Source of the DNA: Heterodontus francisci
Taxonomy: Eukaryota
Direction: 5' to 3'
NCBI RefSeq assembly: GCF_036365525.1
Contig: NC_090378.1
Location: forward strand, 54,324,280-54,388,279
DNA: 64,000 bases
Positions 3,555 through 54,597 of this stretch are shown here, one piece after another. The notes below the pieces were generated by a model. That model was not told the DNA's origin. It did not search any database and saw only the letters and a list, made by a program, of their open reading frames with translations. Made by a program: the position numbers and the translations under genes. Each line of letters begins with the position of its first letter. Position 1 is the first letter of the stretch.

Positions 3555-4221
3555 GGGCCGGATTTTACCAGCCCTTTGGGGAAGAACTGGGAGGCAGAGG
3601 TGTGCCCTTAAAATGGTGAGGCAAGGCGGGGTGTGGAGTGCCCGTGGTCTTCCCGCCCCCATGCCATTTTGCCAGCAGTGGGGAAGATGGAGGATGGCGC
3701 TCCTGCCCAGAGGCCAATTGAGTCACTGAAGTGGCCAATTAAGGACCTCTTTCTGCCACCGCTGGCATTTTACTAGGGGCGGGTGGATTCTCTGCCAGGT
3801 GAACTCTGGTGGCATCCCTCAGGTTTGGGGGGGATTCCCCCGGGCGGCAATGGCTGCCCCTGTGGCAATGGCACTTCCTGCCCTCACCAACCACACCTCC
3901 TCCCTTGCTGGGACCTGCCTGACCCCACTTACCTTGTTGGGAGGACAGCATCCTTCCATGGTGTCCTTTTCATCCAGGTACAGTCCCAGAAGTGGCTACC
4001 ACTCCTGGTGGCACTGTTGAAACTGCTGGCTCTCCAATTGGCTGGCAGCTCCTGGGGGGTGGGTGGCCGTCCTTCAAAGGAACATCAGCCCCAAAGTCAA
4101 CTAATTAGCCACCAGATCCCTGTAAATTGCAGCTCAGGGACCTACAAATGGCCAAGGCGGGGTTACCCCTGGCTTTTCAGCCTGTCATTGGGAACCCCAC
4201 TGCGAGCATAAAATTCAGCCC
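3555..4221. mobile_element. GC-rich Harbinger-type MITE
   Basis: TIRs GGGCCGGATTTT / AAAATTCAGCCC. 3-bp TSD ATT/ATT. Inserted in a PLE-derived repeat remnant (3547-4345). Confidence 0.8.
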
Positions 4222-5553
4222 ATTAATTGTTTCTCTCTCCACAGATACTGCCAGACCTGAAATTTTATTTTCACATTTCACATCTGCAGTATTTTGCTTT
4301 TATATTCATGCAATATTTGGACACACATTTTTACAGTACCTGCTGTTAAAAATGTGGCTGAAGAAGCATTTAAGAATTTTGAACATAACCACTGTCTGCA
4401 GAATTGAGGAGAAACTGTCCAACAAGATGTCAATTTATTTTACAACCAGTTTAAACTGAAACTAATTGACCCTAATAATGAGAAAACAATCAGGTGTAGA
4501 GTTTCAATAATTTTATGAACTGTATCCTCTTTTTATTTGTTCATGGGATGTGAGCGTCGCTGGTAAGGCCAACATTAATTGCCCATCCCTAATTGCCCTT
4601 GAGAAGGTGGTGGTGAGCTGCCTTCTTGAACCGCTGCAGTCCATTTGGGGTAAGTATACCCACAGTGCTGGTAGGGAGGGAGTTCCAGGATTTTGACCCA
4701 GTGACAGTGAAGGAGTGGCGATATAGTTCCAAGTGTGACTTGGAGGGGAACTTGCAGGTGGTAGCGTTCCCGCGCATCTGCTGCCCATTTTCTTCTAGGT
4801 AGTGGACATCGTGAGTTTGGAAGGTGCTGTCAAAGGAGCCTCGGCAAGTTGTGGCAGCGCATCTTGTAGATTGAACACACTGCATCGACTGTGCACCTGT
4901 GATGGAGGGAGTGAATGTTTAAGGTGATGGATGGAGTGCCTATTAAGTGGGCTGTTTTGTTCTGGATGGTGTTGAGCTTCTAGTGTTGTTGGAGCTGCCA
5001 TCATCCAAGCAAGAAGAGAGTGTTCCATCACACTCCTGGCTTGTGTCTTGCAAATGGTGGACAGGCTTTGGGGAGTCAGGAGATGAGTTGCTCGCCACAG
5101 CATTCCCAGCCTCTGACCTGCTCTTGTAGCTACAGTATTTACATGGCTGTCCAGTTAATTTTCTGGTCAATTGCAACTACCATGATGTTGATGATGGAGG
5201 ATTCAGCAATGGTAATGCCGTTGGTAATGGTCAAGGGGAGATGGTTAGATTCTCTCTTATTGGAGATGGTCATTCCCTGGCACTTAATGTGGTGCACATG
5301 TTACTTGTCACTCATCAGCCCAAGCTTGAATGTTGTCCAGGTTTTGTTGCATGCGGATACAGTCTGCTTCAGTATCGGAGTACTTGGGAACGATACTGAA
5401 CACTGCAATCTTCAAACATCCCCACTTCTGACCTTATATTGAATGGAAGGTCATTGATGAAGCAGCTGAAGATGGTTGGGCCTTGGACACTAATTGAGGA
5501 TCTCCTGCAGCAATGCCCTGGACTGAAATGATTGGCCTCCAACAACCACAATG

Positions 5554-5590
5554 AGTTCTGATGAAATGTCACAAACCTGAAACATTAACT
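5554..5590 (+). ncRNA. Minimal type-I hammerhead ribozyme motif (helix II degraded)
   Basis: AGTT-CTGATGA-A-ATGTCACAAACCT-GAAA-CA-TT-AACT. Catalytic core and helix I (AGTT/AACT) are intact. Confidence 0.55.
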
Positions 5591-5856
5591 GTTTCTCTAT
5601 CCACAAATGTTGCTAGTCCTGAGTATTTTCAGCATTTTGTTTTTTGTAGCTTTCCAATATCCACAGTATTTTGCTTTTGTATTAGTGTTCAATTAACTGC
5701 CACTTCTGTTCCAGGAATGCCCAGCTTGAAGAAGTTCTGCTCTTCTCTCCAAGGGGATTTCCGTTTGTCTCTTCTTCCTTGTTCACCATCATTCTTTTCT
5801 ACTTCCCATCTCGTCTTTGATCCAGTTTGGATGAAAGGTCACAGACCTGAAGCATT

Positions 5857-6630
5857 GAGCTGGATTTTATGGAGCCAGCGGGGGTCCTGATGCCAGGCCC
5901 AAAAGGCAAGGCAAACCCCCACCTTGGCCCATTGGAGCACCACCGCCCCCTCACCCCACCACCTCCCCCAGCTCTATTTAACAGCGCTCAGGCAATTAAC
6001 TGCCTGGCGCAGGGATCCCGCCTCCAAGAGCTACCAGCCAATCTGAGGGCTGGCTGTTCAGTAGTATTGGCAGCGCCACTATAAGCAGTAGCACTGCTGG
6101 TACTTCACGAGGCCCGGGACCAGGACCAGTGCAGGAGCCCTGTACCCCAGGTAAATGTGGCGGGGTCGCCGGACCCGTCTGGCAGGCCTTGACGAGGCTG
6201 GGGGGGGGGGTGGGGAGGTGGAGGGTGATTGTTAAGGATGGGGGGGCGGGGGGGAAATTGGGTATTAGGGAGGGGTGGCCTTTGTCACCAGGGGTCCTCT
6301 GCAGGGCACAGATTGCTCACGGAGGGTCTCTTCCTGTAAGCCCACAGGGTGGCCGCCTTGTTTTATTGTTTGGCCTCCACATGTGGGGGGGTCCCACCAG
6401 CTGCTGGTAAAATACCAGCGACAGCAGGAAGAGCTCCTTAAATGGCTATTAATTGGCCATTTATGGGTCTAAATTGGCCTCTGGGCAGGAATTCCGTCTT
6501 TGGCCTTTCCCACACCTGACAAAATTGCATGATGGGAAGGCAATGGGCACTCCACCCACTGCCTTCCATCGGTATTTTATGAGCCCCCTACCTCCCAGCC
6601 CATCTCCCAGGGGCCCATAAAATTCAGCCT
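5857..6630. mobile_element. GC-rich Harbinger-type MITE
   Basis: TIRs GAGCTGGATTTT / AAAATTCAGCCT. TSD ATT/GTT. Internally opposite in orientation to 3555-4221. Confidence 0.8.
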
Positions 6631-7581
6631 GTTAACACTGTTTCTCTCTGCACATATGCTCTCAGACCTATTGAGTATTTGCACCATTTTCTGTTTTTAT
6701 TAACCACTACCATCTTTCTTTATGCCAGATGCAACGAAAATCAGAGGAAAATTTTCCCCCCTCATTCCTATCGAGTTCAATTTTGCTAGCAGTCCTTGAT
6801 GCCACACTCAGTCAAATGCTGCCTTGATGTCAAGGGCAGTCACTTTCACCTCATCTCTGGAATGTATTTATTTTTAATCCATGTTTGGACCAAGGCTGTA
6901 ATGAGACTCGAGCTAATTGTCCAAACTGAGCAGCGATGACCAGGTTATTGTTGAGTAAATGCCAGTTGATAGCACAATAACACAATCACTTTGCTGATGA
7001 TTGAGAGTATACTGATGGGGTGGTAATTGGCTGGATTAAGTTTGTCCTGCTTTTTGTGGACAGGACTTAACTGGGTAATTGTCGTGTGGATGCCAGCATT
7101 GTCACTGTACTGGAACATCTTAGCTACGGGCAGTTAATTCTGGAGCACAAGTCTTCAGTTGTGCTGTTGTCAGGGCCCATAGCCTTTTCTGTATCCAGTG
7201 CCTTCAGCTGTTTCTTGATATAACGCAGAGTGAATTGAATTGGCTGAACACGGACATCTGAAATAGTGGGGACCTCAGGCGGAGGCTGAGATGGATCATT
7301 CATTTAATTGTCCACCATTGCACCATTCAAGACTGGATGTGGCAGGACTGCAGAGCTTTGATCTGATCCGTAGTTTGTGGGATTGCCTAGCTCTGTCTAT
7401 CACATGCTGCCTCCACTGTTTAGCATGCATATAGTCCTGTGTTGTAGCTTCACCAGGTTGACATTTCATTTTTAGGTATGCCTAATGCTGCTCCTTGTAT
7501 GCTCTCCTGCATTCCTCACTGAACCAGAGTCGATCCCTTGGCTTGATGGTAATGGTAAAGTGAGGGATTATGTTGGGCCAT

Positions 7582-7845
7582 GAGACACTGTTTATTGGCC
7601 AGGAATGAACGGTGACATCGAAAAGTTAGTGAGAATGTGTGAGGTATGCCAGAGCCACCAGCCACAACAATGTAAAGTACATCTACACCCTCACGAGATT
7701 CCATCAGTCCCTTGGTCCAAAATCTCCACTGATCTGTTTTTCATGAATGGAGATGCCTTTATCTCAGTCACCAATAATTTCTCCAAATTTTCAGTTGTCA
7801 GGAAGGTAAAAAATACTTCAAATGTGGTTGTTGCAGACACATTGT
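7582..7845 (+). mobile_element. Gypsy integrase fragment, inverted relative to the adjacent Gypsy body
   Basis: YWPGMNGDIEKLVRMCEVCQSHQP...PWSKISTDLF...NFSKF. Homologous to ~34110-34345. Confidence 0.85.
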
Positions 7846-8441
7846 CTACATCTCTGGAGATCTTCTTTGTCTTGTGGGGTAGGCATATGCCTTACATCTT
7901 CGACTTTGCCTGAGTCAGGACAGATTCCACAACCTGAATAGATGGAGCCAAAGAAACTGATCTGACTTACATTCACCTGGCACTTCTTGCTGTTAAAAAT
8001 GAGCCCTTCGGGACAAGCTACCACCATCAGTGAGTGAAGATTTCAATCATGCTCTTAAACTGCAATATCATCGGCAATGCATATACATCCAGGTATGCTT
8101 TCCATGATCCTGTCCATATGCTGTTGGAACTAATCTTAACTGACAGATAAGCCAAAGGGTATTCTCTGGAAGCAATATCGTCCAAAATGATTTTCTGAAG
8201 GTGGTGACTTCCTGAGGTTCTTTAGATGGGTGCACTGACCAATATCCATGTTTAGCATCCAACTTGGAGAAGAATTTGACTCCTGTGAACTTGGGATTCA
8301 ATTCCTCTTGTGTTGGAATTTTGTGAAGGCATCTCTTTAGGGAGAGGTTTAGATGCCTTGGATCTAGACATATCCTGATTGCTCCATCCTTCTTCAGTAC
8401 GCACATGATTGAGCTATACCAGTCAATGCGATGGTGCACAC

Positions 8442-8715
8442 AAGTGGCGAGTCGAAGAGACTTAGCAGTTGGCAGGAAAAAAGACAGAAGCGCAAGGAGA
8501 CAGCCAACTGCGAAACAGCCCTGACAACCAATTTTATCTGCAGCACCTGTGGAAAAGTCTGTCACTCTAGTATTGGCCTTTATAGCCACTCCAGGCGCTG
8601 CTCCACAAACCACTGACCACCTCCAGGTGCTTACCCATTGTCTCCCGAGACGAGGAGGAAGAGGAAGAAGTGGAAGAGGAAGAGGAAGAGGAGAAGGAGG
8701 AGGAAGAAGTAGAAA
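8442..8715 (+). mobile_element. RTE LINE 3' fragment inserted in Gypsy RT
   Basis: FICSTCGKVCHSSIGLYSHSRRC zinc-finger end and a GAA/GAG-rich tail. Matches 30358-30590. Confidence 0.85.
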
Positions 8716-9104
8716 TGACAAATGATGCCATTGTGATTCCATGTCATCCAACGCACGCTTAAGCTTTTCTTGTAATCTGCACGCTACACTTTCTGGGATG
8801 GTTGATTGATGGAATTGCATTCTCTGAGGTGCAGTACGTCATCGTCTTTGAAATCTCTTATGGCGTCAAACCTGTCTGGGTATATTTGGCTTTAGGTCAT
8901 GGATTGATTCCATGTGGGTACCCTTGGTCTCTTCTGCTGTAATGGGATCTTGGTGACCTCGTGGATAGTCACAATGTTGAGGTCCTTACACGCTGGTAGT
9001 CCTGCCACTGCTGGTCCATTCGTGTCTACCAGGTAAAATATTTGTGGTTTCCATGCTGACTTGCTATAGCTGCATTGCATTGTTAGTGTGACACTGCATG
9101 GGAT

Positions 9105-9336
9105 TGTTAGAGAAATTTCCAAGCCTGTTTGTGAAGAAGACACTAATACCAGGATGCTTTGGTGGAGATGTTTATTGCTTGCCACAGAGCTTACTTCTGC
9201 TCTCCAAACAACACCCACCAGCCAGTGGTGGCTGGCTCTTCTTTATATATACATAATTGAATACAATTGACTAATTAACACCCAACACCTGCTCACCCTA
9301 TTATCTTGAATGAGCATTCATTAACAGACCCTAACA
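9105..9336 (-). mobile_element. Solo LTR of a different LTR family
   Basis: Inverted termini TGTTAG...CTAACA. Perfect 5-bp TSD GGGAT (9100-9104 and 9337-9341). TATA and AATAAA on the minus strand. Confidence 0.85.
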
Positions 9337-9532: not shown

Positions 9533-10710
9533 TTTTTTTTAATTCATTCATGGGATATGGGCGCCACTGGCCAGGCCAGCATTTATTGCCCATACCTAAT
9601 TGCCCTTGAGAAGGTGGTGGTGAGCTGCCTTCTTGAACCGCTACAGTCCATGTGGGATAGGTACACCCACAGTGCTGTTAGGAGGGGAATTCCAGGATTT
9701 TGACCCAGCAACAGTGAAGGAACGGCGATATAGTTCCAAGTCAGGATGGTGTGTGACTTGGAGGGGAACTGCAGGTGGTGGTGTTCCCATGCTGCCCTTG
9801 TCCCTCTAGTTGATAGGGGTCGCGGGTTTGGAAGGTGCTGCCTAAGGAGAGTCTTGGTGCATTGCTGCAGTGCATCTTGTAGATGGTACACACTGCTGCC
9901 ACTGTGCGTCGGTGGTGGAGGGAGTGAATCTTTAAGGTGGTGGATAGGGTGCCAATCAAGTAGGCTGCTTTGTCCTGGATAGTGTTGAGCTTCTTGAGTG
10001 TTGTTGGAGCTGCACCCATCCAGGCAAGTGGAGAGTATTCCATCGCATTCCTGACTTGTGCCTTATAGATGGTGGACAGGCTTTGGGGAGTCAGGAGTTG
10101 AGTTACTCGCCACAGGATTCCTAACCGCTGACCTGCTCTAGTAGCCACGGTATTTATCTGGCTACTACAGTTCATTTTCTGGTCAATGGTAGCCCCTAGG
10201 ATGTTGATAGTGGGGGATTCAGCGATGGTAATGCCATTGAATGTCAAGGGGAGATGGTTAGATTCTCTCTTGTTGGAGATGGTCATTGCCTGGCACTTGT
10301 GTGCGCGAATGTTACTTGCCACTTATCAGCCCAAGCCTGGATATTGTCCAAGTCTTTCTGCATTTTTACACGGATTGCTTCAGTATCTGAGAAGCTGCCA
10401 ATGGTGCTGAACATTGTGCAATCATCAGCGAACATCCCCACTTCTGACCTTATGATTGAAGGAAGGTCATTGATGAAGCAGCTGAAGATGGTTGGGCCTA
10501 GGACACTACCCTGAGGAACTCCTGAAGTGATGTCCTGGAGCTGAGATGATTGACCTCCAACAACCACAACCATCTTCCTTTGCACTAGGTATGACTCCAA
10601 GCAGCGGAGAGTTTTCTCCCTGATTCCCATTGACTTCAGTTTTGCTCGGGTTCCTTGATGCCATACTCAGTCAAATGCTGCCTTGATGTCAAGGGCAGTC
10701 ACTCTCACCT
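9533..10710 (-). mobile_element. CR1/L2-group LINE (family 2), 5'-truncated, inside Gypsy copy 1
   Basis: LDIKAAFD, GVPQGSVLGP and MFADDCT RT motifs. Confidence 0.9.
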
Positions 10711-12639
10711 TGACTTCATCCACACAATGTGTCAGGTTCACAATGTGAAACAGCTGCTCATCATCTGGCTGAGAATCGCTCCATTCTGAGTCTTGTCTCG
10801 GGTCTATTTCGCAGTGGTCTTTGTGTATCCGCTTGTATTTATGGAGGTCTCTAGCGCTCTCTTTGCTGCAACTGCCCATTGCTGCACCTGCCTTCTGTTT
10901 GTTTGTGTCCTATTGTGACTTCTGGCTGTGTCTTTGGGGCCAGATTTCTTGCATAGGTGGGCGTATTATCTTTTGCACTGCAAGCTTCGCACAGGTCTTG
11001 AAATGCAGGACAAAGCTTTGCAGTGAGTAGGACAAATCACATTTACCACACAGTTTGCTTGCTTTTTATGACTTGGTTATCGTGCCAATACTATCGGCTG
11101 CTCCTAGTGCTTGCCGATGCTGTTGTCCCCATGTTGTCTACAATGGCTTCGTATTTCCTGCCATCTTCTAGTAGCGCATCAATGCTATGACCTTCCTTTT
11201 TCCCCAAGAGATCCTTTTGAAATGCTTCAATGGGTGTTGAGACAATCACTGACTCCATTATTTGATCCGACAGCTCAGCTTCTGAAAAATCGCTTTTGTT
11301 GCCCTTACTACAGCATCAAATGATGAACTAATCTATTGATTCCTGTGGCTGCTGCCTGTAGGACATCAATTCCAGGCAGCGAATTCTAAAATTCCCTCTT
11401 ACCCAAAGGTGATATTCTAGCACTTTCCATATCTTTGTGGGATCTTTCTGGTTCACTTCAGATAAGGCAGAGGTATTGATTCTGTGTAATCCCTCATTTC
11501 CAACTGTTGATAGTATTTTTACAGCCTGTTGCTGTGGTTCTGTAAACATGTGGTCTGTGAAACATAACTGCATTCTTTGGTTAAAAAGTTTGAACTCGGA
11601 TAGGATATCAGTGGCCTTCCAGTTCATGCTGGGAAATTTGATATCCATCTTTCTGCTGTTCTTTTGCTTTCTGCTCTATATTTAACTTTGTTCAGCTCTG
11701 AGTGTGTCTTCAGTACTGTATTTATTATGACATTTCTATTTGTGGTTTGAAATTGGTTTTAAAACTTGTTCCATTCACTCTGCATTGTTTCACCTTTATG
11801 AAAATCTTGGTTATTTAGACTAGCTGCTTGGATGGAGAGGAGCAGGTGTTTGATATTGTTCTGTGTTTATTTTGCTTTCAGAACTTAAGCCTGTCTGTTT
11901 ACTCAGCTGTTCAGTAGGCAGTTCAATTGCTTTGTTTGCTAGATTTGTTTATGTTATTCACGGTGGAGTGATTTCATTTTTTTTAGCTATGGCTGCGTGA
12001 ATGGGGAATCTTCTTCACCCTTGAGTTGTTTAATGATTTTTTAAAAACTTTGTCTATGTGAATGGAGAGTCTGCAGTGTTCGAAGGTTTCCCGCACTTTT
12101 GCTCTAAGACGCCTCCTGTAATGGCGCCGAACCTGATCAGCCCGAGAGAGGTAATGCGTTTTCCCCATTTCTTTTCACAGAGCCTTTTTTAAAAAATCAG
12201 TCTTTTAAGCACTTCAAAGCGCATTTATTTTAAACAAGTATCCCTCGACCGTTAGCACAATGACTCACCCGATCGCAGGAATTTATTTGCAGCCTGTCAT
12301 TCTGAGTTCTGTCTTCTACAGCTCGAGGTACGTTTTTTTTCTTTCCACTGTTTGGGCCAGTAGTTCTTTTGAACTTTGTCTCTTTTGGGCTGTTGGGAGT
12401 GTAGTTTTCAAAGCTGTTTTACCTGTGGTCTTCAATCTCAGATCTTGCGTTTTCACCACAGTTGCCGCCATGTAATAAGTTCTTTATGCTGTCTTATGCA
12501 AATTAAATGAGATAGTACAGAGTCCAGTTCATTGAAGATCTCTAGCAGGTTTATTAACAGCTAAACCAGTATTTACAATGCAGAGCAAATTATTTATAGA
12601 ATCTTTTTCGGGGTGTTCCAGTTGCAGAGTGCCCCTGGC

Positions 12640-13015: not shown

Positions 13016-14310
13016 TCAAGGGCTGGTATGGCAAGACAAATGAGTATTTTAATTCAAATTTGAATTAGTGCTGTATGAAAGGGGCTGAGGAGGAGCGTTT
13101 TCCATGGGATCATGGGCAGGCATCACATTTTCCAGCTGCATGGGACACATGGGTGCCCACAATGTGCCATTAGTGGTACATGCATCTGCTGGACTCATGC
13201 AAATGAGGTGTCCTGCCACTGTCCATACAAGCTCTGGGATCACACTGAATACTTTGGGGCCCCTTACTTTCTTGATTCCATTGGCCCTTTGGGATTTCAT
13301 TAACCTTGTTCTAACATTATGAATAGGATTATATTGGTAATAACCACCATTTCGTAAGTTTTTCTAGAAAGAACATATTTTCAATGTAAGCACCCTGACC
13401 TTGGTGGGATAAAGTTCCAGAACAGATTTTGCATTGTTGTGCTTGGTGTCCTTAATCCTTCAATGTCACTAAGAAGTATTGAACTCAAAAGTGATAGAAA
13501 ACTATGTATGCAAAGGCCATGAATAATATACCATATTGCTTGTCAGATTTCATTATTGTTCTATTAAATATTGGTTAGGTATTAACATTGGCACTAATAA
13601 TTTATTGGTGTTATTTTAACTGCGACCTAATGTTTCTTTCTCAGGACAAAATTGCATCTTTTATAGGAAATTGTCTTCTCGCTTTCTTTTTTTGCAAGGA
13701 CATATAGATTTCATAGCATTGTCGTGTAGAGCTTGTGTTTTAATTCAGTCAATGAGGAAAAACATAATATTGTTTCGTCCCAATTTTCTGGACCCATGTG
13801 TCAAATAATGCATTTTACAGCAGCTCTATATGCACAGGTAATATACTTACATCAATATCCATACCTTGAGCAACCATTACATCAGTACATGGGAAACACA
13901 GCTTTAAAGATACAAAATTGTCGACCAGCACTACATCACTTGTCGTTCGTAAAGGAGTTAACTTTTGGCAAGGCCTTTCTTCTGGTGATGCCTGGTCTGG
14001 AACCAAGTCGGCACATTTCATTAAAGGTTTGTTTGATATTCTGGAAAAAATTCCAAGGTGCAATTGCATTCTTTTCCAGTGATAGATCCAGGGCACAGTA
14101 AAGACCCACTAGTATGTGAAGTGTCTCATTATTGGAAGAGTGGAATTAAAACAATAAACCACTTTTGTTAAAGTCTAGTTTACTTTTTTAAATAAAATGA
14201 ACATGAATACCAGTTTAATATTAAATAATATTTAATTTTATTAAATAATAACTGCAAATACACTAATAACAGATCTAAAATATAAACAGAAAAGCTGGAA
14301 ATATTCAGCA

Positions 14311-14963
14311 TGTCCTGGGAGGGGCGTAAAATTAGGTGGGATGGCGGGGGTGCTGTGTTCGTTGCCTACCTTCCTCTGCTGATATTTTACCAGCAGTGGG
14401 GGAGGTGGTGGGCAACCCGTATGCCTTTAGGCCAATTGAGGCCCTTAATTGGCCAATTAATGGCCACTTACAGATCTCTTCCTGCCAGTGGATGGGCACT
14501 GCCACCTGAGGAGGCTGCCCAATAAAACCAGGTGGCCTCCTTGCAGGCTTGGGTGGGGCCCTGCTGATCGGGCTCTCTGTGCCCCAAGGAGGACTCTTCC
14601 AGTGGCCTGGGCTGGCGATCAGACCCCCAGCCCCTTGCTGGGGCCTGGATGATTGACCCCGGTGAGCCCCAACCCCACTTATCTCCTACTGCAGCCTCCA
14701 TCACTGACTGGGTCCGGGGCCTGCTGCAGTCCCAGCAGTGGCCACCGCTCCCATTGGCGTTGCTGGGATTGAAGAGCTGCCAGTCCTCTGACTGGCTGGC
14801 AGCTCTTGGAGGCAGGACATCCTGCCTCAGAGCAGTGGAAGCCACATCCTCAGGCAATTAATTGCGCAAAATAACATCATGGCTTCCAGGGCCAGTGGAG
14901 GCGGGCTCGCCCCAACTTTCCAGCCGGTGGGTGGGGCCACCACCTCCTTGTTAAATCCCAGCC
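14311..14963. mobile_element. GC-rich Harbinger-type MITE (left end deleted)
   Basis: Shares the GGCCAATTGAGGCCCTTAATTGGCCAATTAA block with 3555-4221. Right TIR-like end is TTAAATCCCAGCC. Confidence 0.72.
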
Positions 14964-14996
14964 AACATTTCAGGTTGATGACCTTTCATCAGCACT
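14964..14996 (-). ncRNA. Minimal hammerhead motif, disrupted by a MITE at the cleavage site
   Basis: Minus strand reads CTGATGA-A-AGGTCATCAACCT-GAAA-TG-TT, followed directly by the MITE TIR. Confidence 0.55.
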
Positions 14997-15254
14997 GGAA
15001 GAAGTTAGAGATGTAACAGGTTTTAAGCAAGTACAGAGACACAGAAAGGGTGGAGGGGAGGAAAGAACATAAGGGAAGGTCTGTGATAGGGTGGAAGGCA
15101 GAAGAGATTAAATGACAAAAGGGATGAAGGTGCAAGGCAAAATGAGACAGAGTGGGACAAATAAACAAACTGAAGATGGGTCTAGAAGAGGTGTAAATTG
15201 CAATAGTAGAATCATTATCAATAGCTGTTATCGGAAAAAATGGGAGTGGTGGTT

Positions 15255-15603
15255 ATAGTCATAGAGAGATACAGCACCGAAACAAGCCCTTTGACCCACC
15301 AAGTCTGTGCTGACTACCAACCACCCATTTATACTAATCCTACATTAACCCCATATTTCCTAAAACATCCCCACAATTCTCCTACCTACACTAGGGGCAA
15401 TTTACAATGGCCAATTTACTGATCAACCTGCAAGTCTTTGGCTGTGGAAGGAAGCCAGAGCACCCCACAGAAACCCACGCGGTCACAGGGAGAACTTGCA
15501 AACTCCGCACAGGCAGGACCCAGAACTGACTCTGGGTCGCTGGAGCTGTGAGGCTGTGGTGCTAGCCACTGCGCCACTGTGCCACTGTGCCACTGTGCCA
15601 CCC
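15255..15603 (-). mobile_element. HE1-like SINE (diverged)
   Basis: Homologous to 1-342. Has a GCCACTGT tandem expansion at its 5' end. Confidence 0.88.
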
Positions 15604-17039
15604 TATGATCTACCCGTTATGATCTGAAAGTGTTGGATTCAGTGTTGAGTCTGGAAGGCTGTAAAGTGCCTAATCAAAAGATGAGGTGTTCCTCGAGCTT
15701 CCATTAAGCTTCATTAGAACACTGTAGGAGACAAGGGCCAGAGAGGTCAGTGTGGGGGTGGGGCAGAGAATTAAAATGACAGGTGACCAGAAGCTTATGG
15801 TCACGCTTGCGGACTAAACAGCAGTGTTCTGCAAAGCAATCACCCAATCTATGTTTGATCTCCCCAATGTTGAGAAGACAACATCCTGAAAAGCAAGTAC
15901 AGTATATGAAATTGAAAGAGGTACAAGCAAGTCACTGATTCACTTGGAAGGAGTTTTTGGGCCCTGGTGGTGGGAAGAGAGGAGGTAAAAGGGGAGGTGT
16001 TGCATCTCCTGTTCTTGCACGGGAAGACACTATGGGAAAGGGAGGGGGTTTTGGGTGATGATAAGTGGACCAGGGTGTCGTGGAGGGAATGGTTCCATCG
16101 GAATGCTGAAAGGGGAGGGAAGGGGAAGATGCATTTGGTAAGGGCAACATGCTGGATGTGGCCACTGCTGATGATCCATTGAATGTGGAGGCTGGTGGGA
16201 TGTAAAGATGAGAAACTCTATTGTGGTTCTGGGCGTCGGCCGGGGAAGGGGTGAAAGCAGAAATGCGGAAAATGGGATGGACACTGTCGGGGACCCTGTC
16301 AACCACAGTGGAGGGAATCTTTGGTTAAGAAAAAGGAAGGCATCCTAAATAGAATGAAAGTCGTGATTATACAGTGAAATGTCTAGAACATTAAAATGTC
16401 TATGCATGTAACATCAGTTGGCATGCTGTACAGTTTCTACTTTAGAAAGCAGGTGGTCAATTATTTCATGCAACCAGTCCTTCCAACCTCGTGTTTCAAG
16501 TGTACATGTTTATACAAGTCCAAGACTCTGTCCAGACATGTAAGCATCATTACAGTCATTTGGCATCTTGTCACCAGTATACTCGAGCATGTAATTATCT
16601 CCTTATGAAGACCTAGTGTATTTAGCTCTCTCTATCTAGGTCTTTGAGAATCAAAGAAAAAATTCCTACCCAGATCTAACTCTCATTAATGAGAAGATTT
16701 GTTTGTTCTCACCTTCCTGACCCATGTCACATTTTTAAATGGCCTTTGTGTACAGCACTTCTCATCATATTAGTTTAATTCATATGGCAATTAATCTGTT
16801 CAGCTGTGAAAGAAATTTACAGCATGCAGTGAGTAGCTTTGTTTCCATCAGGGATAATATTATGATGGCCTTGTTTATGTGGCACTCTGATATACAATAA
16901 AACTGCCACCAATGACTGTGGTCAATTATTGAAAATTTAAGGACATGTTACTAGTAATGAGAGTGAACAACATAGTTAACCTTTTGATTCCTGTTTAGTG
17001 GGAAATGTTTTTTGCAATTGATGCAAAACAAATCACACT

Positions 17040-27354: not shown

Positions 27355-27470
27355 GGTTAATAAAAACAGGAAATGCTGGAAATATTCACCAGATCAAGCA
27401 GCGTCTGTGGAGAGCGAAACAGAGTTAACGTTTTATGTTGATGATCTTTTTGTCAGTTCTGGATGAGCAA
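27355..27470 (-). repeat. PLE-derived short repeat with degenerate hammerhead
   Basis: AAATGCTGGAAATATTCACCAG...GAAACAGAGTTAACGTTT matches the arms of 52826-53057. The HHR core is mutated. Confidence 0.65.
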
Positions 27471-30587: not shown

Positions 30588-33500
30588 AGACAACATAAAG
30601 AACTCATTACATGGTGGCTGCTGTGGTGAAAAGACAAAGTCTAAGTTGAAGACCATGGGTAAAACAGCTGTTAAAACAACCCATCCTACAGCCAAAAGAG
30701 AGAAAATTCCACAGAAATACTGGCCCAAATAGTGGAAAGAAAAAAGAACTTACCTCCAGCTGTAGAAGACCGAGCTCAGAACGACAGGCTGCCAATAAAT
30801 TCCTGTGATCAGGTGAGTCATTGTACTGATGGTTGAGGAATCCCCGTTTTTAATAAAAGCTTTGCAGTGCTTAAAAAGTTGTATTTTTTTTCAAAGGCTC
30901 CATTAAAACAAAAAAGGGGAAGACCCTATTTCTCTCCCAGGCTGATTGAGGTTGGTGCCATTACAGGAGGAGTCCGATAGCAAAAAGCACGGGAATCCTC
31001 TGAACACTGCAGTCTCCACTCACACAGCCAAAGTTTTTAAAAAATTAAATCACTCAAGCATGAAGAAGAGTCTCTATTCACACAGCCACAGCTTAAAAAA
31101 ATTAAACCACTCAAGCATGACGAACATAAACAAACTCTGGCAAAAAAAAAGCAATTGAACTGCCTATTGAGCAGCTGTGTAAACAGACAAGTTTAAGTGC
31201 CGGAAGCAAAATTAACACAGAACACTATCAAACACCTGCTGCTCTCCATCCAAGCAGCTAGTCTAAATAGCAGAGAATTTCTGAAAAGGGAAACCGCACA
31301 GAGTGAATAGAACAAAGTTAAATAAAGAGCAGAAAGCAAAAGAACAGCGGAAAAAATGGATATCAAATTTCCCAGCATAAACTGGAAGGCCATTTTTATC
31401 CTATCCGAGTTCCAACCTTTTAAACAAAGAATGCCGTTATGCTTCACAGACCAAGCGGTTGTAGAACCAGAGAAGCAGGCTGTGAAAATACTGATAGCAG
31501 TTGGAAATGGGAGGTTACACATAATCAATACCTCTGGCTTATCTGAAGAGAACCAGAAAGATACTGCAAAGATATGGAAAGTAGTAGGAGACAAACTCCG
31601 ATTAAGAGTGAATTTTAGAATTCACCACCTGGAATTGATGTCCTACAGGCAACAGCGACAGGAATCAATATATCAGTTCATCAGTAAGGGCAATGAATGT
31701 GAATTTTCAGAAAATGAGCTGGCGGTGTGACTAATGGAGCTGGTGATTGTCTCAACACTCATTGAATCATTTCAGAAAGACCATGTGGAAAAGAGAAATG
31801 TCACAACATTGATGTGCTGCTAGAAGATGGCAGGAAATACGAAGCCATTGTAGCCGGACAACAACATCTGCAAGCACTAGGTGCAGCCAACAGTTTTGGC
31901 ACGACAGCCAGGTCAAAAAGAGAAAGCAAGCTCTGTGGTAAGTGTGGTTAGTCCCACTCACGGCAAAGATGTCCTGCATTTCAAGACCTGTGCAAGACGT
32001 GTGGTGCAAAAGGACACTGGGCCCACTTGTGCGAGAAATCTGGCTCTAAAGACGCAGCCAGAAGTCACAGTAGAACACAAGCAAACAGAAGACAGGCACT
32101 GCAACAGAAAACAGCAGGAAGGAGACCTCCGTAAACGCAAGCCGATACACGTAGTCCACAGTGAAACAGACCTGAGACAAAATTCAGAGAGAAGTGATTA
32201 TCAGCCAGAAGATGAGCAGGCATTTCACATTGTGAACTTGACACATTGTGTTGATGAAGCCAAACGACTGGAAGCTTTTGGTATTATTAACATCATGTGC
32301 CGAAAGAAAGTGGGAAAACAGACACTGAGGGTTAAGATTGACACCGGAGCTAGTGCAAGTATCCAACTAGTCCGAATCCTTAAGGATATGTACTGGGGAA
32401 ATTAATGATACAACCAACAACTGCAAAGTTATCTGCATGCAATGGGTCATCCATCTCATGCAGTGGCATACTAAGAATGCAATGCAGCTATGGCAAGTTA
32501 GCATTGAAACCACAAATATTTTACCTTGTAGACACAAACGGACCAACAGTGGCAGGACTACCAGTGTGTAAGGACCTCAACATCGTGACTATCTACGAGG
32601 TCACCAAGGTACCCATTACAGCAGAAGAGACCAAGGGTACCCACATTGAGTCAGTCCACGACCTGCAACAAAGGTACCCAGACAGATTTAACACCAAAGG
32701 AGATTTCAAAGGCAATGCCGTTCTGCACCTCAGAGAGAATGCAATTCTGTCAATCAACTCTCAAGTTCACAGGAGCCAAATTCTTCTCCAAGTTGAATGC
32801 TAAACATGGATATTGGTCGGTACACCTAGCTAAGGAATCCCAGCAAGTCACCACCTTCAGAACACCATTTGTAAAATACTGCTTCCAAAGACTACCCTTC
32901 GGCTTATCTGTCAGTCAAGATTTGTTTCAGCAACATATGGACAGAATTATAGAAAACGTGCCTGGATGTATATGCATTGCCGATGATATAATGGGTAAAA
33001 CCAAAGAAAAGCTTGATGGACATCTTCATTCACTGATGGCAGTAGCTCATCGCGAAGGGCTAATTTTTAACAGCAAGAAGTACCAGGTGAATGTAAGTCA
33101 GATCAATTTCTTTGGCTCCATCTATTCAGGTTGCAGAATCCTTCCTGGCCCAGACAAAGTCAAAGATGTAAGGCATATGCCTACCCCACAAGACAAGGAA
33201 GATCTACAGAGATGTCTTGGATTTTTCAACTTCCTGGCACCATACATTCCAATTTTTTCTGACAAAGCACCATCACTGAGCGAGCTCTTAAAGAAAGTCG
33301 TACCATTTGTATGGCAGGATGACCATCAGCAAATGTTTGAGTCTCTCAAACAAGCATCTTCAGCAGTACCCTGCAGTACACAATCCAAGGAAGAAGGTTG
33401 ACACCTCACAGAAAGGGCAAGGAGCGTGCATCCTGCAGGATGGCAAACCAATTGCATTTGGGTCCAAATGTTTATCTTCAGCACAATCCAATTGCTCAAA

Positions 33501-35233
33501 CATAGAGCGTGAAACACTTGCTGTGGTGTTTGGGATCACCAGGTTCCACACCTACCTGTTCGGTAAGCAGATCACTGTGAAAACCGACCACAAACCACTG
33601 GAGATGATCTGGTGCAAATCATTGACAAGCGCACCACCTCGACTACAGCGACTCTTAGTGAAAGTACAAGGGTATGACTTCGGCGTCTGCTATAAACCGG
33701 GTACCAAAATGGTCATCTCAGATACGCTGAGCAGATTGCCACACCCGAGCAAGAATAAAGAAGTTCCACTGGATCTGCAAATAGACAGCCTGGACATCGA
33801 GGTGGAAGATGTGCTCAAAATCAATTTATTGCATTTTGGTCAGCACAAATGTGACCAACTACAATCAGAAACAGCCAATGACCCACAACTGAAGACACTG
33901 CGGAGGGTCATCCTAGAAGGTTCACCTGATATGGTAAAAGAGATATCAGAAACCCTCAGATACTTTTGCCCTGATAGAGATGAACTCGGTATCTTGAGAG
34001 GCATCATTTTCAAGGGAAAACAAGTGATTGTGCCCAAAGGTCTCCGATAGGACATCTTGGCACAACTTCACCAAGGCCATATGGGCTTAGATCGAACAAG
34101 TCGACTGGCACGAGACACTGTTTTATTGGCCAGGGATCAACAGTGACATCGAAAGGTCGATGAGGATGTGCGAGATATGCCAGAGCCACCAGCCACAACA
34201 ATGCAAACAACCTCTACACCCTCCCTTAGTCCAAAATCGCCACTGATCTATTTACTGTGAATGGAGACGACTTTATCTTAGTCACCGATTATTTTTCCAA
34301 ATTTCCAATTGTCAGACAGATAAAAGACACTTCAGACACATTAAGTGCCATATTCAGTCTATTCGGTGCACCTGAAGAAATCATTTCTGACAATGGGCCA
34401 CAGTATACGGGCAAACCTTTCAGGGATATGTGTTTCAAATGGGGCGTAAACCATGTGACGTCCTCACCACATTACCTTAGACCTAATGGTCTTGCTGAGC
34501 AAATGGTTTGCACAGTCAAATCACCTTGTCCTGAAGTGTAGGACAACAAAACAAGATTTTCGTGTTGCCATGCTCCACCTTAGAGCTACACCTTTGGAAA
34601 AGGGCTTACAGTCGCCAGCAGAAATCATGTTTCGCAGACAAGTGCAAAGGACTCTACCAAGCCATCATCTGTCCAAATTCTTCGAGATGCAGGAGACACT
34701 ACTCAAAAAACAAGGGAGAATGAAGATTGTGCATGCAGGGATGGAACGACCTCAGCTACACGTAGGACAACAGGTCAAGGCCATACACCCCACAATGAGA
34801 GCATGGTTACCCACAGAAGTATTTAAAGTATGCAGGGAGCCTAGGCCTTACAAGATTGCAACATCTAAAGGAGCAGTGTTGAGAAGGAACTGAAGCGAAC
34901 TAAGAGAAGTGTGCAACACTCCAGTCACACACAGCAGACTCGAAAGAGCACACTCCGACGATGAGGGTGTGATGTAACAACAGGACAACAACCAACACAT
35001 TGACAACATGCCTGCAAACTAAAAACAGCCAAGAGTGAAATCCACATCCCCAGAGGGATATGCCATAACCAGATCTGGAACAGTTGTCAAACCACCAAAA
35101 CAAGACATGGACTCTCAAGCTTCCATACTATTAAACTTTATAATCTATATCCCGTATAACTAATTTTGATATCTAATTTTATGTGTTTTTTACCTGTAGC
35201 ATATGAGACATATCTTTGAAAGAAAGGCGATGT

Positions 35234-37297
35234 TTTTTTTAAATTCATTCATGGGATGTGGGCATCGCTGGCCAGACCAGCATTTATTGCCCATCCCTAA
35301 TTGCCCTTGAGAAGGTGGTGGTGAGCTGCCTTCTTGAACTGCTGCAGTCCATATAGGATAGGTACACCCACAGTGCTGTTCGGAAGAGAGTTCCAGGATA
35401 TTGACCCAGCGACAGTGAAGGAACGGCGATATAGTTCCAAGTCAGGATGGTGTGTGACCTGGAGGGGAACGTGCAGGTGGTGGTGTTCCCATGCATTTGC
35501 TGCCCTTGTCCTTCTAGTTGGTAGAGGTCGCGGGTTTGGAAGGTGCTGTTTAAGGAGCCTTGGTGCGTTGCTGCAGTGCATCTTGTAGATGGTACACACT
35601 GCTGCCATTGTGCGTCGGTGGTGGAGGGAGTGAATGTTTGTTGATGGGGTGCCAATCAAGCAGGCTGCTTTGTCCTGGATGGTGTCGAGCTTCTTGAGTG
35701 TTGTTGGAGCTGCTCCCATCCAGGCAAGTGGAGAGTATTCCATCACACTCCTGACTTGTGCCTTGTAGATGGTGGACAGGCTTTGGGGAGTCAGGAGGTG
35801 AGTTACTCGCCGCAGGATTCCTAGCCTCTGACCTGCTCTTGTAGCCACGGTATTTATGTGGCTACTCCAGTTCAGTTTCTGGTCAATAGTAGCCCCTAGG
35901 ATGTTGATAGTGGAGGATTCAGCAATGGTAATGCCATTGAATGTCAAGGGGAGATGGTTAGATTCTCTCTTGTTGGAGATGGTCATTGCCTGGCATTTGT
36001 GTGGCGCAAATGTTACTTGCCACTTATCAGCCCAAGTCTGGATATTGTCCAAATCTTTCTGCCTTTCGACATGGACTGCTTCAGTATCTGAGGAGTCACT
36101 AATGGTGCTGAACATTGTGCAATCATCAGCGAACATCCCCACTTCTGACCTTATGATTGAAGGAAGGTCATTGATGAAGCAGCTGAAGGTGGTTGGGCCT
36201 AGGACACTACCCTGAGGAACTCCTGCAGTGATGCCCTGGAGCTCAGATGATTGACCCCCAACAACCACAACCATCTTCCTTTGTGCTAGGTATGACTCCA
36301 ACCAGCGAAGGGTTTTCCCCATGATTCCCATTGACCTCAGTTTTGCTAGGGCTCCTTGATGCCATACTCGGTCAAATGCTGCCTTGATGTCAAGAGCAGT
36401 TACTCTCACCTTACCTAGAGTTCAGCTGTCTTGTCCATGTTTGAACCAAGGCTGTAATGAGGTCAGGAGCTGAGTGGCCCTGGCGGAACCCAAACTGAGA
36501 GTCACTGAGCAGGTTATTGCTAAGCAAGTGCCGCTTGATGGCACTGTTGATGACATCTTCCTTCACTTTACTGATGATTGAGAGTAGGCTGATGGGGCGG
36601 CAATTGGCCGGGTTGGATTTGTCCTGCTTTTTGTGTACAGGACATACCTGGGCAATTTTCCACATTGCGGGGTAGATGCCAGTGTTATAGCTGTACTGGA
36701 ACAGCTTGGCTTGGGGCACGGCAAGTTCTGGAGCACAGGTCTTCAGTACTATTGCCGGAATATTGTCAGGGCCCATAGCCTTTGCAGTATCCAGTGCCTT
36801 CAGTCATTTCTTGATATCACGCAGAGTGAATCAAATTGGCTGAAGTCTGGCATCTGTGATGCTGGGGACTTCAGAAAGAGGCCGAGATAGATCATCTACT
36901 TGGCACTTCTGGCTGAAGATTGTTGCAAATACTTCATCCTTATCTTTTGCACTGATGTGCTGGGCTCTTCCATCATTGAGGATGGGGATATTTGTGGAGC
37001 CACCTGCTCCAGTTAGTTGTTTAATTGTCCACCACCATTCATGACTGGATATGGCAGGACTGCAGAGCTTAGATCTGATCCATTGGTTATGGGATCGCTT
37101 AGCTCTGTCTATCGCATGTTGATTACGCAGTTTGGCACGCAGATAGTCCTGTGTTGAAGCTTCACCAGGTTGACACATCATTTTGAGGTATGCCTGGTGC
37201 TACTCCTGGCTTGCTCTCCTGCACTCTTCATTGAACCAGGGTTGGTCTCCTGGCTTAATGGTAATGGTAGAGTGGGGGATATGCCGGGCCACGAGGT
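35234..37297 (-). mobile_element. CR1/L2-group LINE (family 2), 5'-truncated, inserted at the start of the Gypsy 3' LTR
   Basis: 370-aa open RT ORF (35297-36409) plus upstream GPDNIP...RPISLLS...QFGFRQGHS. Confidence 0.93.
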
Positions 37298-52444: not shown

Positions 52445-53660
52445 ATATAAATGACTTAGATGAAGGGACCGAAGGTATGGTTGCTAAATTTGCTGATGAC
52501 ACAAAGATAGGTAGGAAAGTAACTTGTGACGAGGACATAAGGGGACTACAAAGGTATATAGGTAGGTTGAGTGAGTGGGAAAAGACCTGGCAAATGGAAT
52601 ACAATGTGGGAAAGTGGGAAATTGTCCACTTTGGCAGGAAGAATAAAAAAGAAGCATATTATCTAAATGGTGAGAGATTGCAGAGCTCTGAGATGCAGAG
52701 GGATCTGGGTGTCCTAGTGCATGAATCGCAAAAGGTTAGTATGCAGGTACAGCATGCAATTAGGAAAGCTAATAGAATGTCATTGTTTATCACGAGAGGA
52801 ACTGAATACAAAAGTAGGGAGTTATAAAAGCAAAATACTGCAGATGCTGGAAATCTGAAATAAAAACAAGAAATGCTGGAAATACTCAGCAGGTCTGGCA
52901 GCATCTGGAGAGAGATACAGAATTAACGTTTCAGGTCAGTGTCCCTTCTGATGACCCAGGTCTGATGAAGGGTCAGTGACCTGAAATATTAACTCTGCTT
53001 CTCGCTCCACAGATGCTGCCAGACTTGCTGAGTATTTCCAGCATTTCTTGTTTTTATAAAAGTAGGGAGATTGTACTTCAGCTATACAGGGCATTAGTGA
53101 GACAACATCTGGAGTAATGTGTACAGTAGTGGCCTCCTTATTTAAGGAAGGATGTAAATGCATTGGAGGCAGTACAGAGAAGGTTTACTAGATTAATACC
53201 TGGAATGGGCGGGCTGTCTTACAAGGAAAGATTGGACAGGCTATGCTTGTATCAGCTGGAAAGTAGAAGGGTAAGAGGCGACTTGATTGAAACATATAAG
53301 GTCCTGAGGGGTCTTGACAGGGTGGATGTGGAAACGATTTTTCCCCTTGTGGGCGAATCTAGAACTAGGGGTCACAGTTTAAAACTAAGGGATCGCCCAT
53401 TTAAGACAGAAATGAGGAGAAATTTTTTCTCTTAGAGGTTTGTGAGTCTTTGGAATTCTCTTCCTCAAAAGGCGGTGGAAGCAGAGTTTTTGAATGTTTT
53501 TAAGGCAGAGGTCAATAGATTGTTGATAAGCAACGAGGTGGAAGGTTATCGGGGGTAGGTGGGAATGTGGAGTAATCAGTTCAGCCATGAACTTATTGAA
53601 TGGCGGAGCGCACTCAAAGGACTGAGTGGCCTAGTCCTGCTCCTAATTCGTATGTTCGAA
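52445..53660 (+). mobile_element. CR1 LINE 3' part, same subfamily as 39326-42950
   Basis: Near-identical to 41980-42950. Split by the insertion at 52826-53057. Confidence 0.92.
52826..53057. mobile_element. Palindromic Penelope-derived short element with hammerhead motif
   Basis: ~88-bp inverted arms. ~16-bp TSD AAAAGTAGGGAG(TTAT/ATTGT). HHR core at 52962-52990 (+). Confidence 0.8.
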
Positions 53661-54380: not shown

Positions 54381-54505
54381 CAGAAAGAAGCTATGAGTCA
54401 ATCTGGGACGCAGAAATACCTGGAGTGACAGAGGCAGAAGAGTTTGTGGAGTAATAACAAAGGCCAGAGCAGTGGAGTATAATGGATTTTGAACTGTTCG
54501 AGGGA

Positions 54506-54542
54506 AGTTCTGATGAAAGGTCATTGACCTGAAATGTTAACT
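54506..54542 (+). ncRNA. Minimal type-I hammerhead ribozyme motif (best-preserved copy) in a PLE-derived repeat (~54400-54600)
   Basis: AGTT-CTGATGA-A-AGGTC(ATT)GACCT-GAAA-TG-TT-AACT. Helix I AGTT/AACT, helix II AGGTC/GACCT, GUU cleavage triplet. Confidence 0.7.
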
Positions 54543-54597
54543 CTGTTTCTCTCTGCACAGATGCTGCCTGACCTGCCAAGTATTTCCAGTATTTTAT

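Follow-up and report, generated by a model that had tools for sequence, protein, structure and literature searches.

The insertion at 5552-6701 of the window (the whole stretch of Heterodontus francisci DNA that was analysed, 64,000 nucleotides in length) is probably a single, internally shortened copy of a shark Penelope-like element (PLE), and does not appear to belong to a family that spreads as circular ribozyme RNAs. The repeat that carries its hammerhead ribozyme (HHR) is the pseudo-LTR (pLTR) of a PLE. In the layout that we consider probable, a 5′ pLTR, a leader and the first 35 codons of a reading frame are fused directly to a 3′ pLTR, the whole lying within a LINE and being split by a non-coding DNA transposon (MITE). 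The parts of the locus, numbered from the first letter of the window, are as follows.

4540-5551, minus strand (the RT-coding strand): left part of the host LINE, 82% identity to 35248-36270 and 9547-10569.
5544-5551, plus strand: left copy of the target-site duplication, AACCACAA, 8 bp.
5554-5590, plus strand: HHR1, read as a hammerhead of minimal type I, opening the 5′ pLTR, with its cut predicted after 5586.
5587-5648, plus strand: 3′ part of pLTR copy 1, with 47-50 of 59-62 aligned bases identical to five other window copies.
5649-5685, plus strand: extension of about 37 nt after the pLTR end, also at the inverted copy 52823-52858 and at about 4287-4306.
5686-5716, plus strand: leader, likely PLE 5′ UTR, multi-copy, contiguous with extension and frame in other contigs.
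5717-5821, plus strand: 35 opening codons of a conserved frame that begins with the ATG at 5717, probably a PLE ORF N-terminus; the homology stops at 5821.
5822-5856 and 6634-6701, plus strand: pLTR copy 2, with the MITE between its two parts.
5822-5856 (repeat part 5824-5856), plus strand: HHR2, with which the 3′ pLTR begins; its core has four changes.
5857-6630, no strand given: MITE, 774 bp, likely Harbinger-type, with terminal inverted repeats and a 3-bp duplication.
6634-6701, plus strand: remaining 3′ part of pLTR copy 2, ending where copies of the family usually do, with the same end as the copies at 27359 and 53057.
6702-6709, plus strand: right copy of the target-site duplication, AACCACTA, 7/8 identical to the left copy.
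6702-7550, minus strand: right part of the host LINE, 74-83% identity to 36263-37262.

In one paralogue of the host LINE, the frame at 35300-36421 matched reverse transcriptase in a Pfam search (PF00078, E 7e-25). The 8-mer AACCACAA is present as a single copy in two uninterrupted paralogues of the host (10562-10569 and 36263-36270), and therefore 5544-5551 and 6702-6709 are a true target duplication. Apart from the MITE, the PLE-derived part comprises about 370 nt: pLTR copy 1 (5554-5648), the extension of about 37 nt, 135 nt more, and pLTR copy 2. There is no ORF for RT and EN between the pLTRs, and the distance from the extension to HHR2 is just 135 nt; thus, the unit is not an autonomous PLE.

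The strongest direct repeat within 4500-8000 is a 33-nt pair, 5554-5586 and 5824-5856, in which 28 of 33 bases are identical and the spacing is exactly 270 nt. Judged by sequence, both HHRs are read as minimal type I hammerheads of the PLE kind (PMC4209133). HHR1, which is preceded by two extra bases (5552-5553), has an intact core (CTGATGA at 5558-5564 and GAAAC at 5579-5583), with G16.2 being A and helix II retaining 3 of 5 pairs; HHR2 has an intact helix II and is altered at C3, U4, A15.1 and G16.2. The folding energy of HHR1 is just -2.2 kcal/mol, and that of a better-kept sister copy (54504-54544; helices I and II) is -7.3 kcal/mol. The helix II loop ACA is common to HHR1 and HHR2 and absent from four other aligned window copies. 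An Rfam search of 4000-8500 gave no match up to E 5; as minimal HHRs lie outside the Rfam models, this is no evidence against the two HHRs. The pLTRs of the unit are identical at 76 of 95 aligned bases, a divergence of about 20%, much as in the LINE paralogues, which makes the locus an old one; with both ribozymes decayed, it is predicted to be inert. The first-pass annotation, made from the sequence alone, had described a LINE split by an insertion between target duplications, an HHR core at 5558, a second, degraded core in direct repeat with cut sites 270 nt apart, and a link to PLE machinery. All four descriptions stand: the first through the two paralogues with a single 8-mer, the second through the intact core (albeit with G16.2 and helix II damaged), the third through the 28/33 identity at a spacing of 270, and the last through the target duplication and the two PLE-type minimal HHRs.

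In the window, there are eight pLTR pieces, and two further structures show the family in other settings.

14280-16340, minus strand: 3′ remnant of an autonomous PLE, with a cysteine linker, a GIY-YIG-like stretch, a 3′ UTR and the same HHR at 14996-14964, split by a MITE.
52823-53057, no strand given: an inverted pLTR together with a direct one, a form typical of PLE insertions; the target duplication is 12 bp.

In the remnant, the same pLTR terminates a longer element, behind its 3′ UTR. The cysteine linker is one that we take to resemble a Neptune-like linker. The GIY-YIG-like stretch scored 0.94 in the ESM Atlas to clusters with PF01541 in 13-22% of their members and had no match in Pfam; the call of a GIY-YIG endonuclease is a lead only. 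The unit itself has direct pLTRs with a minimal type I HHR, by which derivatives of EN+ PLEs are recognised.

The region 5500-6760 served as the target for mapping four sequencing runs at 80% likeness, namely the raw capture reads of organism A and its contigs, a putative RNA run of the same organism (X22), and about half of one run of organism C. X22 is merely guessed to be RNA and was not counted as evidence of expression; among the runs listed, there was no RNA sequencing run carrying the sequence. Upstream of 5554, 1512 loose ends of raw reads agree with the 3′ UTR of the remnant (14993-15030), and therefore the PLE 3′ UTR precedes the hammerhead in most copies. In addition, 1709 reads pass from 6701 into the extension sequence of 5649-5685, and one opposite-strand joint in the sequencing data is a further sign of the inverted pLTR form. 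The extension is consistent with the PLE “tail” of 30-40 bp described by Craig et al. 2021 (10.1101/2021.04.23.441226), and extension on one end only has been described for PLEs (10.1101/2021.04.23.441226; PMC8969392). The left ends of the pLTRs lie 0-3 nt before helix I in five of six readable copies (5554, 5822, about 52956, 54506 and about 27460), the sixth being still joined to its 3′ UTR; left out of this tally are an inverted piece (52948) and one whose start lies near GAAAC (3549). Such starts fit a recurrent stop point.

The MITE, which the first-pass annotation did not include, fills two thirds of the insertion interval and parts HHR2 from its own tail (6634-6701). Copies related to it are present at several window positions, and a frame at 1509-2105, with no match in Pfam, presumably resembles a Harbinger transposase. 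In 147 raw DNA reads (106 + 41, with joints from 5851 to 6630/6631) the MITE is skipped and the hammerhead is joined to the tail; therefore, the MITE is a later insertion. It has the terminal inverted repeats, the 3-bp duplication (ATT at 5854-5856, GTT at 6631-6633) and the palindromic target preference by which PIF/Harbinger MITEs are recognised. For the 12 ends that lie outside pLTRs, the stretch before the duplicated triplet agrees with G-A-n-A-Y at 40 of 48 positions, a score reached in 0 of 100000 random sets, an optimistic figure given that the motif was read from the same data. In common with PIF/Harbinger elements there are short terminal inverted repeats from GGG, the 3-bp duplication and a palindromic target with A at -4 and -2 and pyrimidine at -1, a preference resembling the target consensus of zebrafish Harbinger3_DR quoted in PMC3016246; in contrast to them, the MITE has no fixed central triplet and no tool-linked transposase.

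Three of the 11 such elements in the window (3555-4221, 5857-6630 and 14963) lie on the triplet before an HHR cut site, and at least two of the three are independent because they face opposite ways. At 3555, the left flank keeps just the GAAAC box; the terminus at 14963 is atypical. The GAAAC box with helix I of the hammerhead matches 6-7 of 8 MITE target positions. Against random placement, three landings of 11 have a P of 3e-10, whereas among sites scoring 7/8 the P is about 0.08; this is unremarkable, so a special mechanism by which the MITE targets the HHR is unneeded. Contigs of both organisms span 5858 with 16-26 letters on each side, which suggests that there are more such MITE-HHR loci. 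Our literature search found no paper on MITEs repeatedly landing on a hammerhead cut site.

The spacer between the HHRs was said by the first-pass annotation to hold no recognisable coding sequence, which is contradicted by its 35 codons. A search of 1.84 billion proteins with the spacer peptide gave three matches at E up to 0.001. The peptide matches XP_067869940 (Heterodontus francisci, horn shark) with 76% identity over 38 aa (E 1.9e-9) and an unnamed Logan protein with 55% (E 1.9e-4); the horn shark match is also in keeping with an elasmobranch host. Both share the Val-Phe-Asp that ends at 5821 and then continue in frame with similar residues, at the point where the unit turns into HHR2. 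The match with the best E, a wasp repeat protein (P0001), had no matched stretch and was dropped as an artefact of summed repeats. The length of the frame alone proves nothing, as an ATG frame of 35 codons occurred in 104 of 1000 shuffles. Longer relatives of the frame were not found in the protein searches; the retained relatives P0002 and P0003 had no match in Pfam, and residues 72-148 of P0002 had no usable match in the ESM Atlas. None of the searches linked the peptide to an RT or GIY-YIG domain. Its position immediately downstream of the 5′ pLTR, and a presumed resemblance, suggest that the frame is the N-terminus of a PLE ORF.

The spacer had also been thought open to being single-copy or simply the 3′ UTR of an autonomous PLE. 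It is multi-copy, and it is not the 3′ UTR of the PLE in the window, against which its score is 75 versus 72 +/- 5 for shuffled sequence (138 of 500 shuffles as high); it is most likely the 5′ end of a PLE. There is no second copy of the spacer elsewhere in the window, and the searches for related loci found none in metagenomes, viral contigs or phages; one genome-contig match (L001) was a lone stretch of 23-26 nt and was rejected as chance. The multiplicity is seen in the reads. Raw-read depth is about 2400 at HHR1, falls from 1300 to 400 along 5672-5800, is 4700 at the tail and is 5-11 in the MITE interior (6274-6359), with only 12 of 13826 mapped reads being at least 99% alike. Although capture makes the depth uneven, the copies of the spacer must number at least in the hundreds. 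No 270-nt tandem array is present in the window.

The joint of spacer and HHR2 was not seen elsewhere among the listed contigs. All 12 spacer pieces from other loci among the longest 24 of 19873 end at 5762-5822, and three plus-strand contigs ending at 5821/5822 continue with 264, 382 and 199 unlike letters. In three runs, the family letter is present in 57, 30, 22, 16 and 9 contigs at 5788, 5794, 5802, 5808 and 5815, respectively, and all of these contigs finish by about 5823. The greatest distances from these positions to the end of the aligned part are 35, 29, 21, 15 and 8 among the rows listed for X1; those in X22 and X14 are equal to them or smaller by one, so that every series leads to 5822-5823 (this way of reading distances was checked on record 14, which has a depth of 70.5, ends at 5821 and fits the row for 5815). 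For the 90 contigs with the family letter at 5829, an end of the aligned part is never more than 16 letters away. Thus, spacer and HHR do not occur together in any contig with family letters, and the joint 5821/5822 is in no other contig among the listed rows of three runs and two organisms at 80% likeness, a scope within which contigs drop rare forms, copies less than 80% alike are missed, and a rare or older family would escape. With the joint absent from the other listed contigs and the other spacer copies ending at 5821/5822, the first-pass view of the unit as a copy of a non-autonomous ribozyme retroelement family is left unsupported.

A low-copy family of that kind, derived from the 5′ end of a PLE, in which a 270-nt HHR-to-HHR RNA would be cut, circularised and reverse-transcribed by the PLE enzyme, is in our judgement quite improbable. 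A 270-nt circle copied from the usual 3′ priming boundary, once round and as far as helix I, would give the exact 1.4-unit structure; the loop variant is common to both HHRs; and a mean retrozyme length of 363 bp has been reported for one chondrichthyan (10.64898/2026.07.22.740005). However, a circle predicts more copies of the joint, and there are none among the listed contigs; no 270-nt go-back is among the listed joints, just as no such tandem lies in the window; the 270-mer has no stable fold and is no more structured than shuffles (z +0.93); and the HHRs are of the minimal PLE type and not of the canonical type of classic retrozymes. Joints such as those from 5856 to 5619 and from 6701 to 5651 were set aside as evidence of circles, as any ordinary pLTR maps likewise. 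An RNA test at GTT^AAC was likewise rejected as a discriminator: every uninterrupted pLTR reads through that sequence.

The shortened-copy reading can be put as a sequence of steps. The PLE reverse transcriptase would prime at the usual 3′ boundary (6701), copy tail and hammerhead, stall at the foot of helix I (5822) and jump template to codon 35 of a PLE RNA; copying would then continue through leader, tail and hammerhead to a second stop at the same helix I foot (5554). Later, a likely Harbinger-type MITE would land on the triplet before the second cut site, and both ribozymes would decay afterwards. Both copies in the unit start at the foot of helix I and share the ACA loop, and hence one reverse-transcription event is proposed, which the shared loop fits. 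No clear microhomology was seen at the 5821/5822 joint.

Insertion of a full-length PLE followed by DNA-level deletion of about 3 kb of its interior would yield an identical layout, with an ORF start between two pLTRs and a single target duplication, and PLE internal deletions have been reported, such as 2.8 kb in Chlamys-3_cRei (10.1101/2021.04.23.441226). We regard it as unlikely, given that the right breakpoint coincides with the start of four other window pLTR copies, where a random deletion would rarely end. Very unlikely is a pair of adjacent insertions, in which a solo pLTR would have followed a 5′ fragment of a PLE and the duplication would be shared by chance or through repeated use of a nick: solo pLTRs are frequent in the window, and insertion of PLEs within or beside copies already present has been described (PMC6765202), but one 8-bp duplication frames the whole unit, there is none around the second copy alone, and the ACA loop is common to both HHRs.

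As a side lead, 143 raw reads with 70 starts go back 68 nt, from 6699 to 6632, and either side has more than 1000 loose ends. The position of the joint can be shifted over 5 letters, and in one register the repeat runs exactly from the cut site to the 3′ boundary. Thus, a 68-nt tandem repeat appears to start at the HHR cut site; it may be an ordinary satellite from one duplication. A bolder reading, to which we give little credence, is that of a retrozyme caught at birth: a single jump of the reverse transcriptase from hammerhead foot to PLE ORF would have made an HHR-270-HHR unit capable of being cut and circularised, with the cut site both bounding a 68-nt tandem unit (telomerase-like copying) and drawing Harbinger MITEs that disable the ribozyme. 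If true, this would be a route to retrozymes other than tandem duplication.

For the shortened copy of a PLE, the import is modest. Shortened PLE copies with two pLTRs are expected, and the unit is a real but ordinary fossil; the cut-site MITEs and the 68-nt repeat are of more interest than the unit itself. It does carry a caution: an arrangement of HHR, spacer and HHR can be a collapsed PLE, and the test of a family is the new joint only, not the cut site. The side observations touch on an open question, namely whether cleavage by PLE hammerheads occurs in vivo and in what way reverse transcription of PLEs begins and ends. A 5′ stop common to several copies at helix I, and a tandem unit with the cut site as its limit, would be traces of the PLE cycle left in the genome, testable in any shark assembly.

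Among known systems, canonical HHRs have been tied to retrozymes and minimal HHRs to PLEs (Cervera and de la Peña 2020, PMC7229834), and dimer cleavage of minimal PLE HHRs has been described [PMC4209133; see the review PMC6765202, citing Lunse et al.]. The first-pass annotation knew of no such family in cartilaginous fish; non-LTR retrozymes had in fact been reported there, in one sampled chondrichthyan with a mean consensus of 363 bp, by Li, Clavereau and Pollet 2026 (10.64898/2026.07.22.740005), who derive retrozymes from pLTRs and whose supplementary tables may list relatives of this pLTR family. Our literature search found no paper on this shark PLE, which is probably already in Repbase and Dfam. 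Li, Clavereau and Pollet ask of a retrozyme at least two consecutive tandem units and complete HHRs folding below -5 kcal/mol; here there is no array, HHR2 has four core changes, and HHR1 folds at -2.2 against the cut-off of -5 kcal/mol. Non-LTR retrozymes should also lack coding sequence, be repeated as a unit and have a target duplication of more than 4 bp: the unit keeps the 35-codon remnant, its parts are repeated with the joint 5821/5822 not in other contigs among the listed rows, and its duplication is 8 bp. Thus, with animal non-LTR retrozymes (PMC7229834; 10.64898/2026.07.22.740005) it shares a direct HHR pair a few hundred bases apart, the duplication of more than 4 bp and an origin from pLTRs; it differs in comprising about 1.4 units with no tandem array, in its ORF remnant and in its minimal, damaged HHRs. 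From PLEs, as they are described in 10.1101/2021.04.23.441226, it differs in keeping just 35 codons between the pLTRs and in the helix II closing pair 10.1-11.1, which is A-U or G-U here and usually G-C. With them it shares a type I HHR of the minimal form, palindromic at 15.2-16.2 and with one additional base following A9, the direct pLTRs with an extension of 30-40 nt on one copy, frequent 5′ truncation, the target duplication and, in its sister copy at 52823-53057, the inverted pLTR.

The palindromic target of one MITE family, likely of Harbinger type, is matched by the GAAAC box of the hammerhead ribozyme in pseudo-LTRs (pLTRs) of Penelope-like elements (PLEs); because the box fits this target, insertion of the MITE splits the ribozyme. 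In the window, three of the 11 MITEs of this family occupy the three bases preceding the hammerhead cut site in pLTR copies. These and the other features are as follows.

3555–4221, MITE on the pre-cut-site triplet of a pLTR copy
5857–6630, MITE on the pre-cut-site triplet of a pLTR copy
14963–14380, MITE on the pre-cut-site triplet of a pLTR copy
14280–16340, decayed 3′ remnant, on the minus strand, of an autonomous PLE
52823–53057, inverted and direct pLTR pair within a LINE, with a 12-bp target duplication
31326–34900, 8068–9242 and 11328–11675, Gypsy-like LTR retrotransposon fragments
1509–2108, stop-free frame of 199 codons

The decayed autonomous PLE holds a MITE in its pLTR, and its 3′ UTR is interrupted by another repeat (about 15330–15620). 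At the inversion point of the pLTR pair, there is a partial additional hammerhead box (CTGATGA). Five pLTR copies have a common 5′ truncation point, 0–3 nt ahead of hammerhead helix I (starts at 5554, 5822, 52956, 54506 and 27460).

The 199-codon frame, which had no match in Pfam, is presumed to resemble a Harbinger transposase fragment; a MITE-like terminus lies at 742. The Gypsy-like fragments contain what we take to be gag-, protease-, reverse transcriptase- and integrase-like frames, and the rest of the window is mostly LINE fragments.

Capture reads from organism A aligned to 6632–6704 contain a tandem repeat with a 68-nt unit (143 joint reads, 70 starts), which is absent from the window itself. 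In one register, this unit begins at the cut site, ends at the 3′ boundary of the PLE and does not include the hammerhead.

The horn shark protein P0002 (XP_067869940), which matches a 35-codon frame at 5717–5821, is a gene model annotated as "uncharacterized"; its residues 72–148 appear to be the same N-terminal repeat-derived frame, taken in between unrelated parts.
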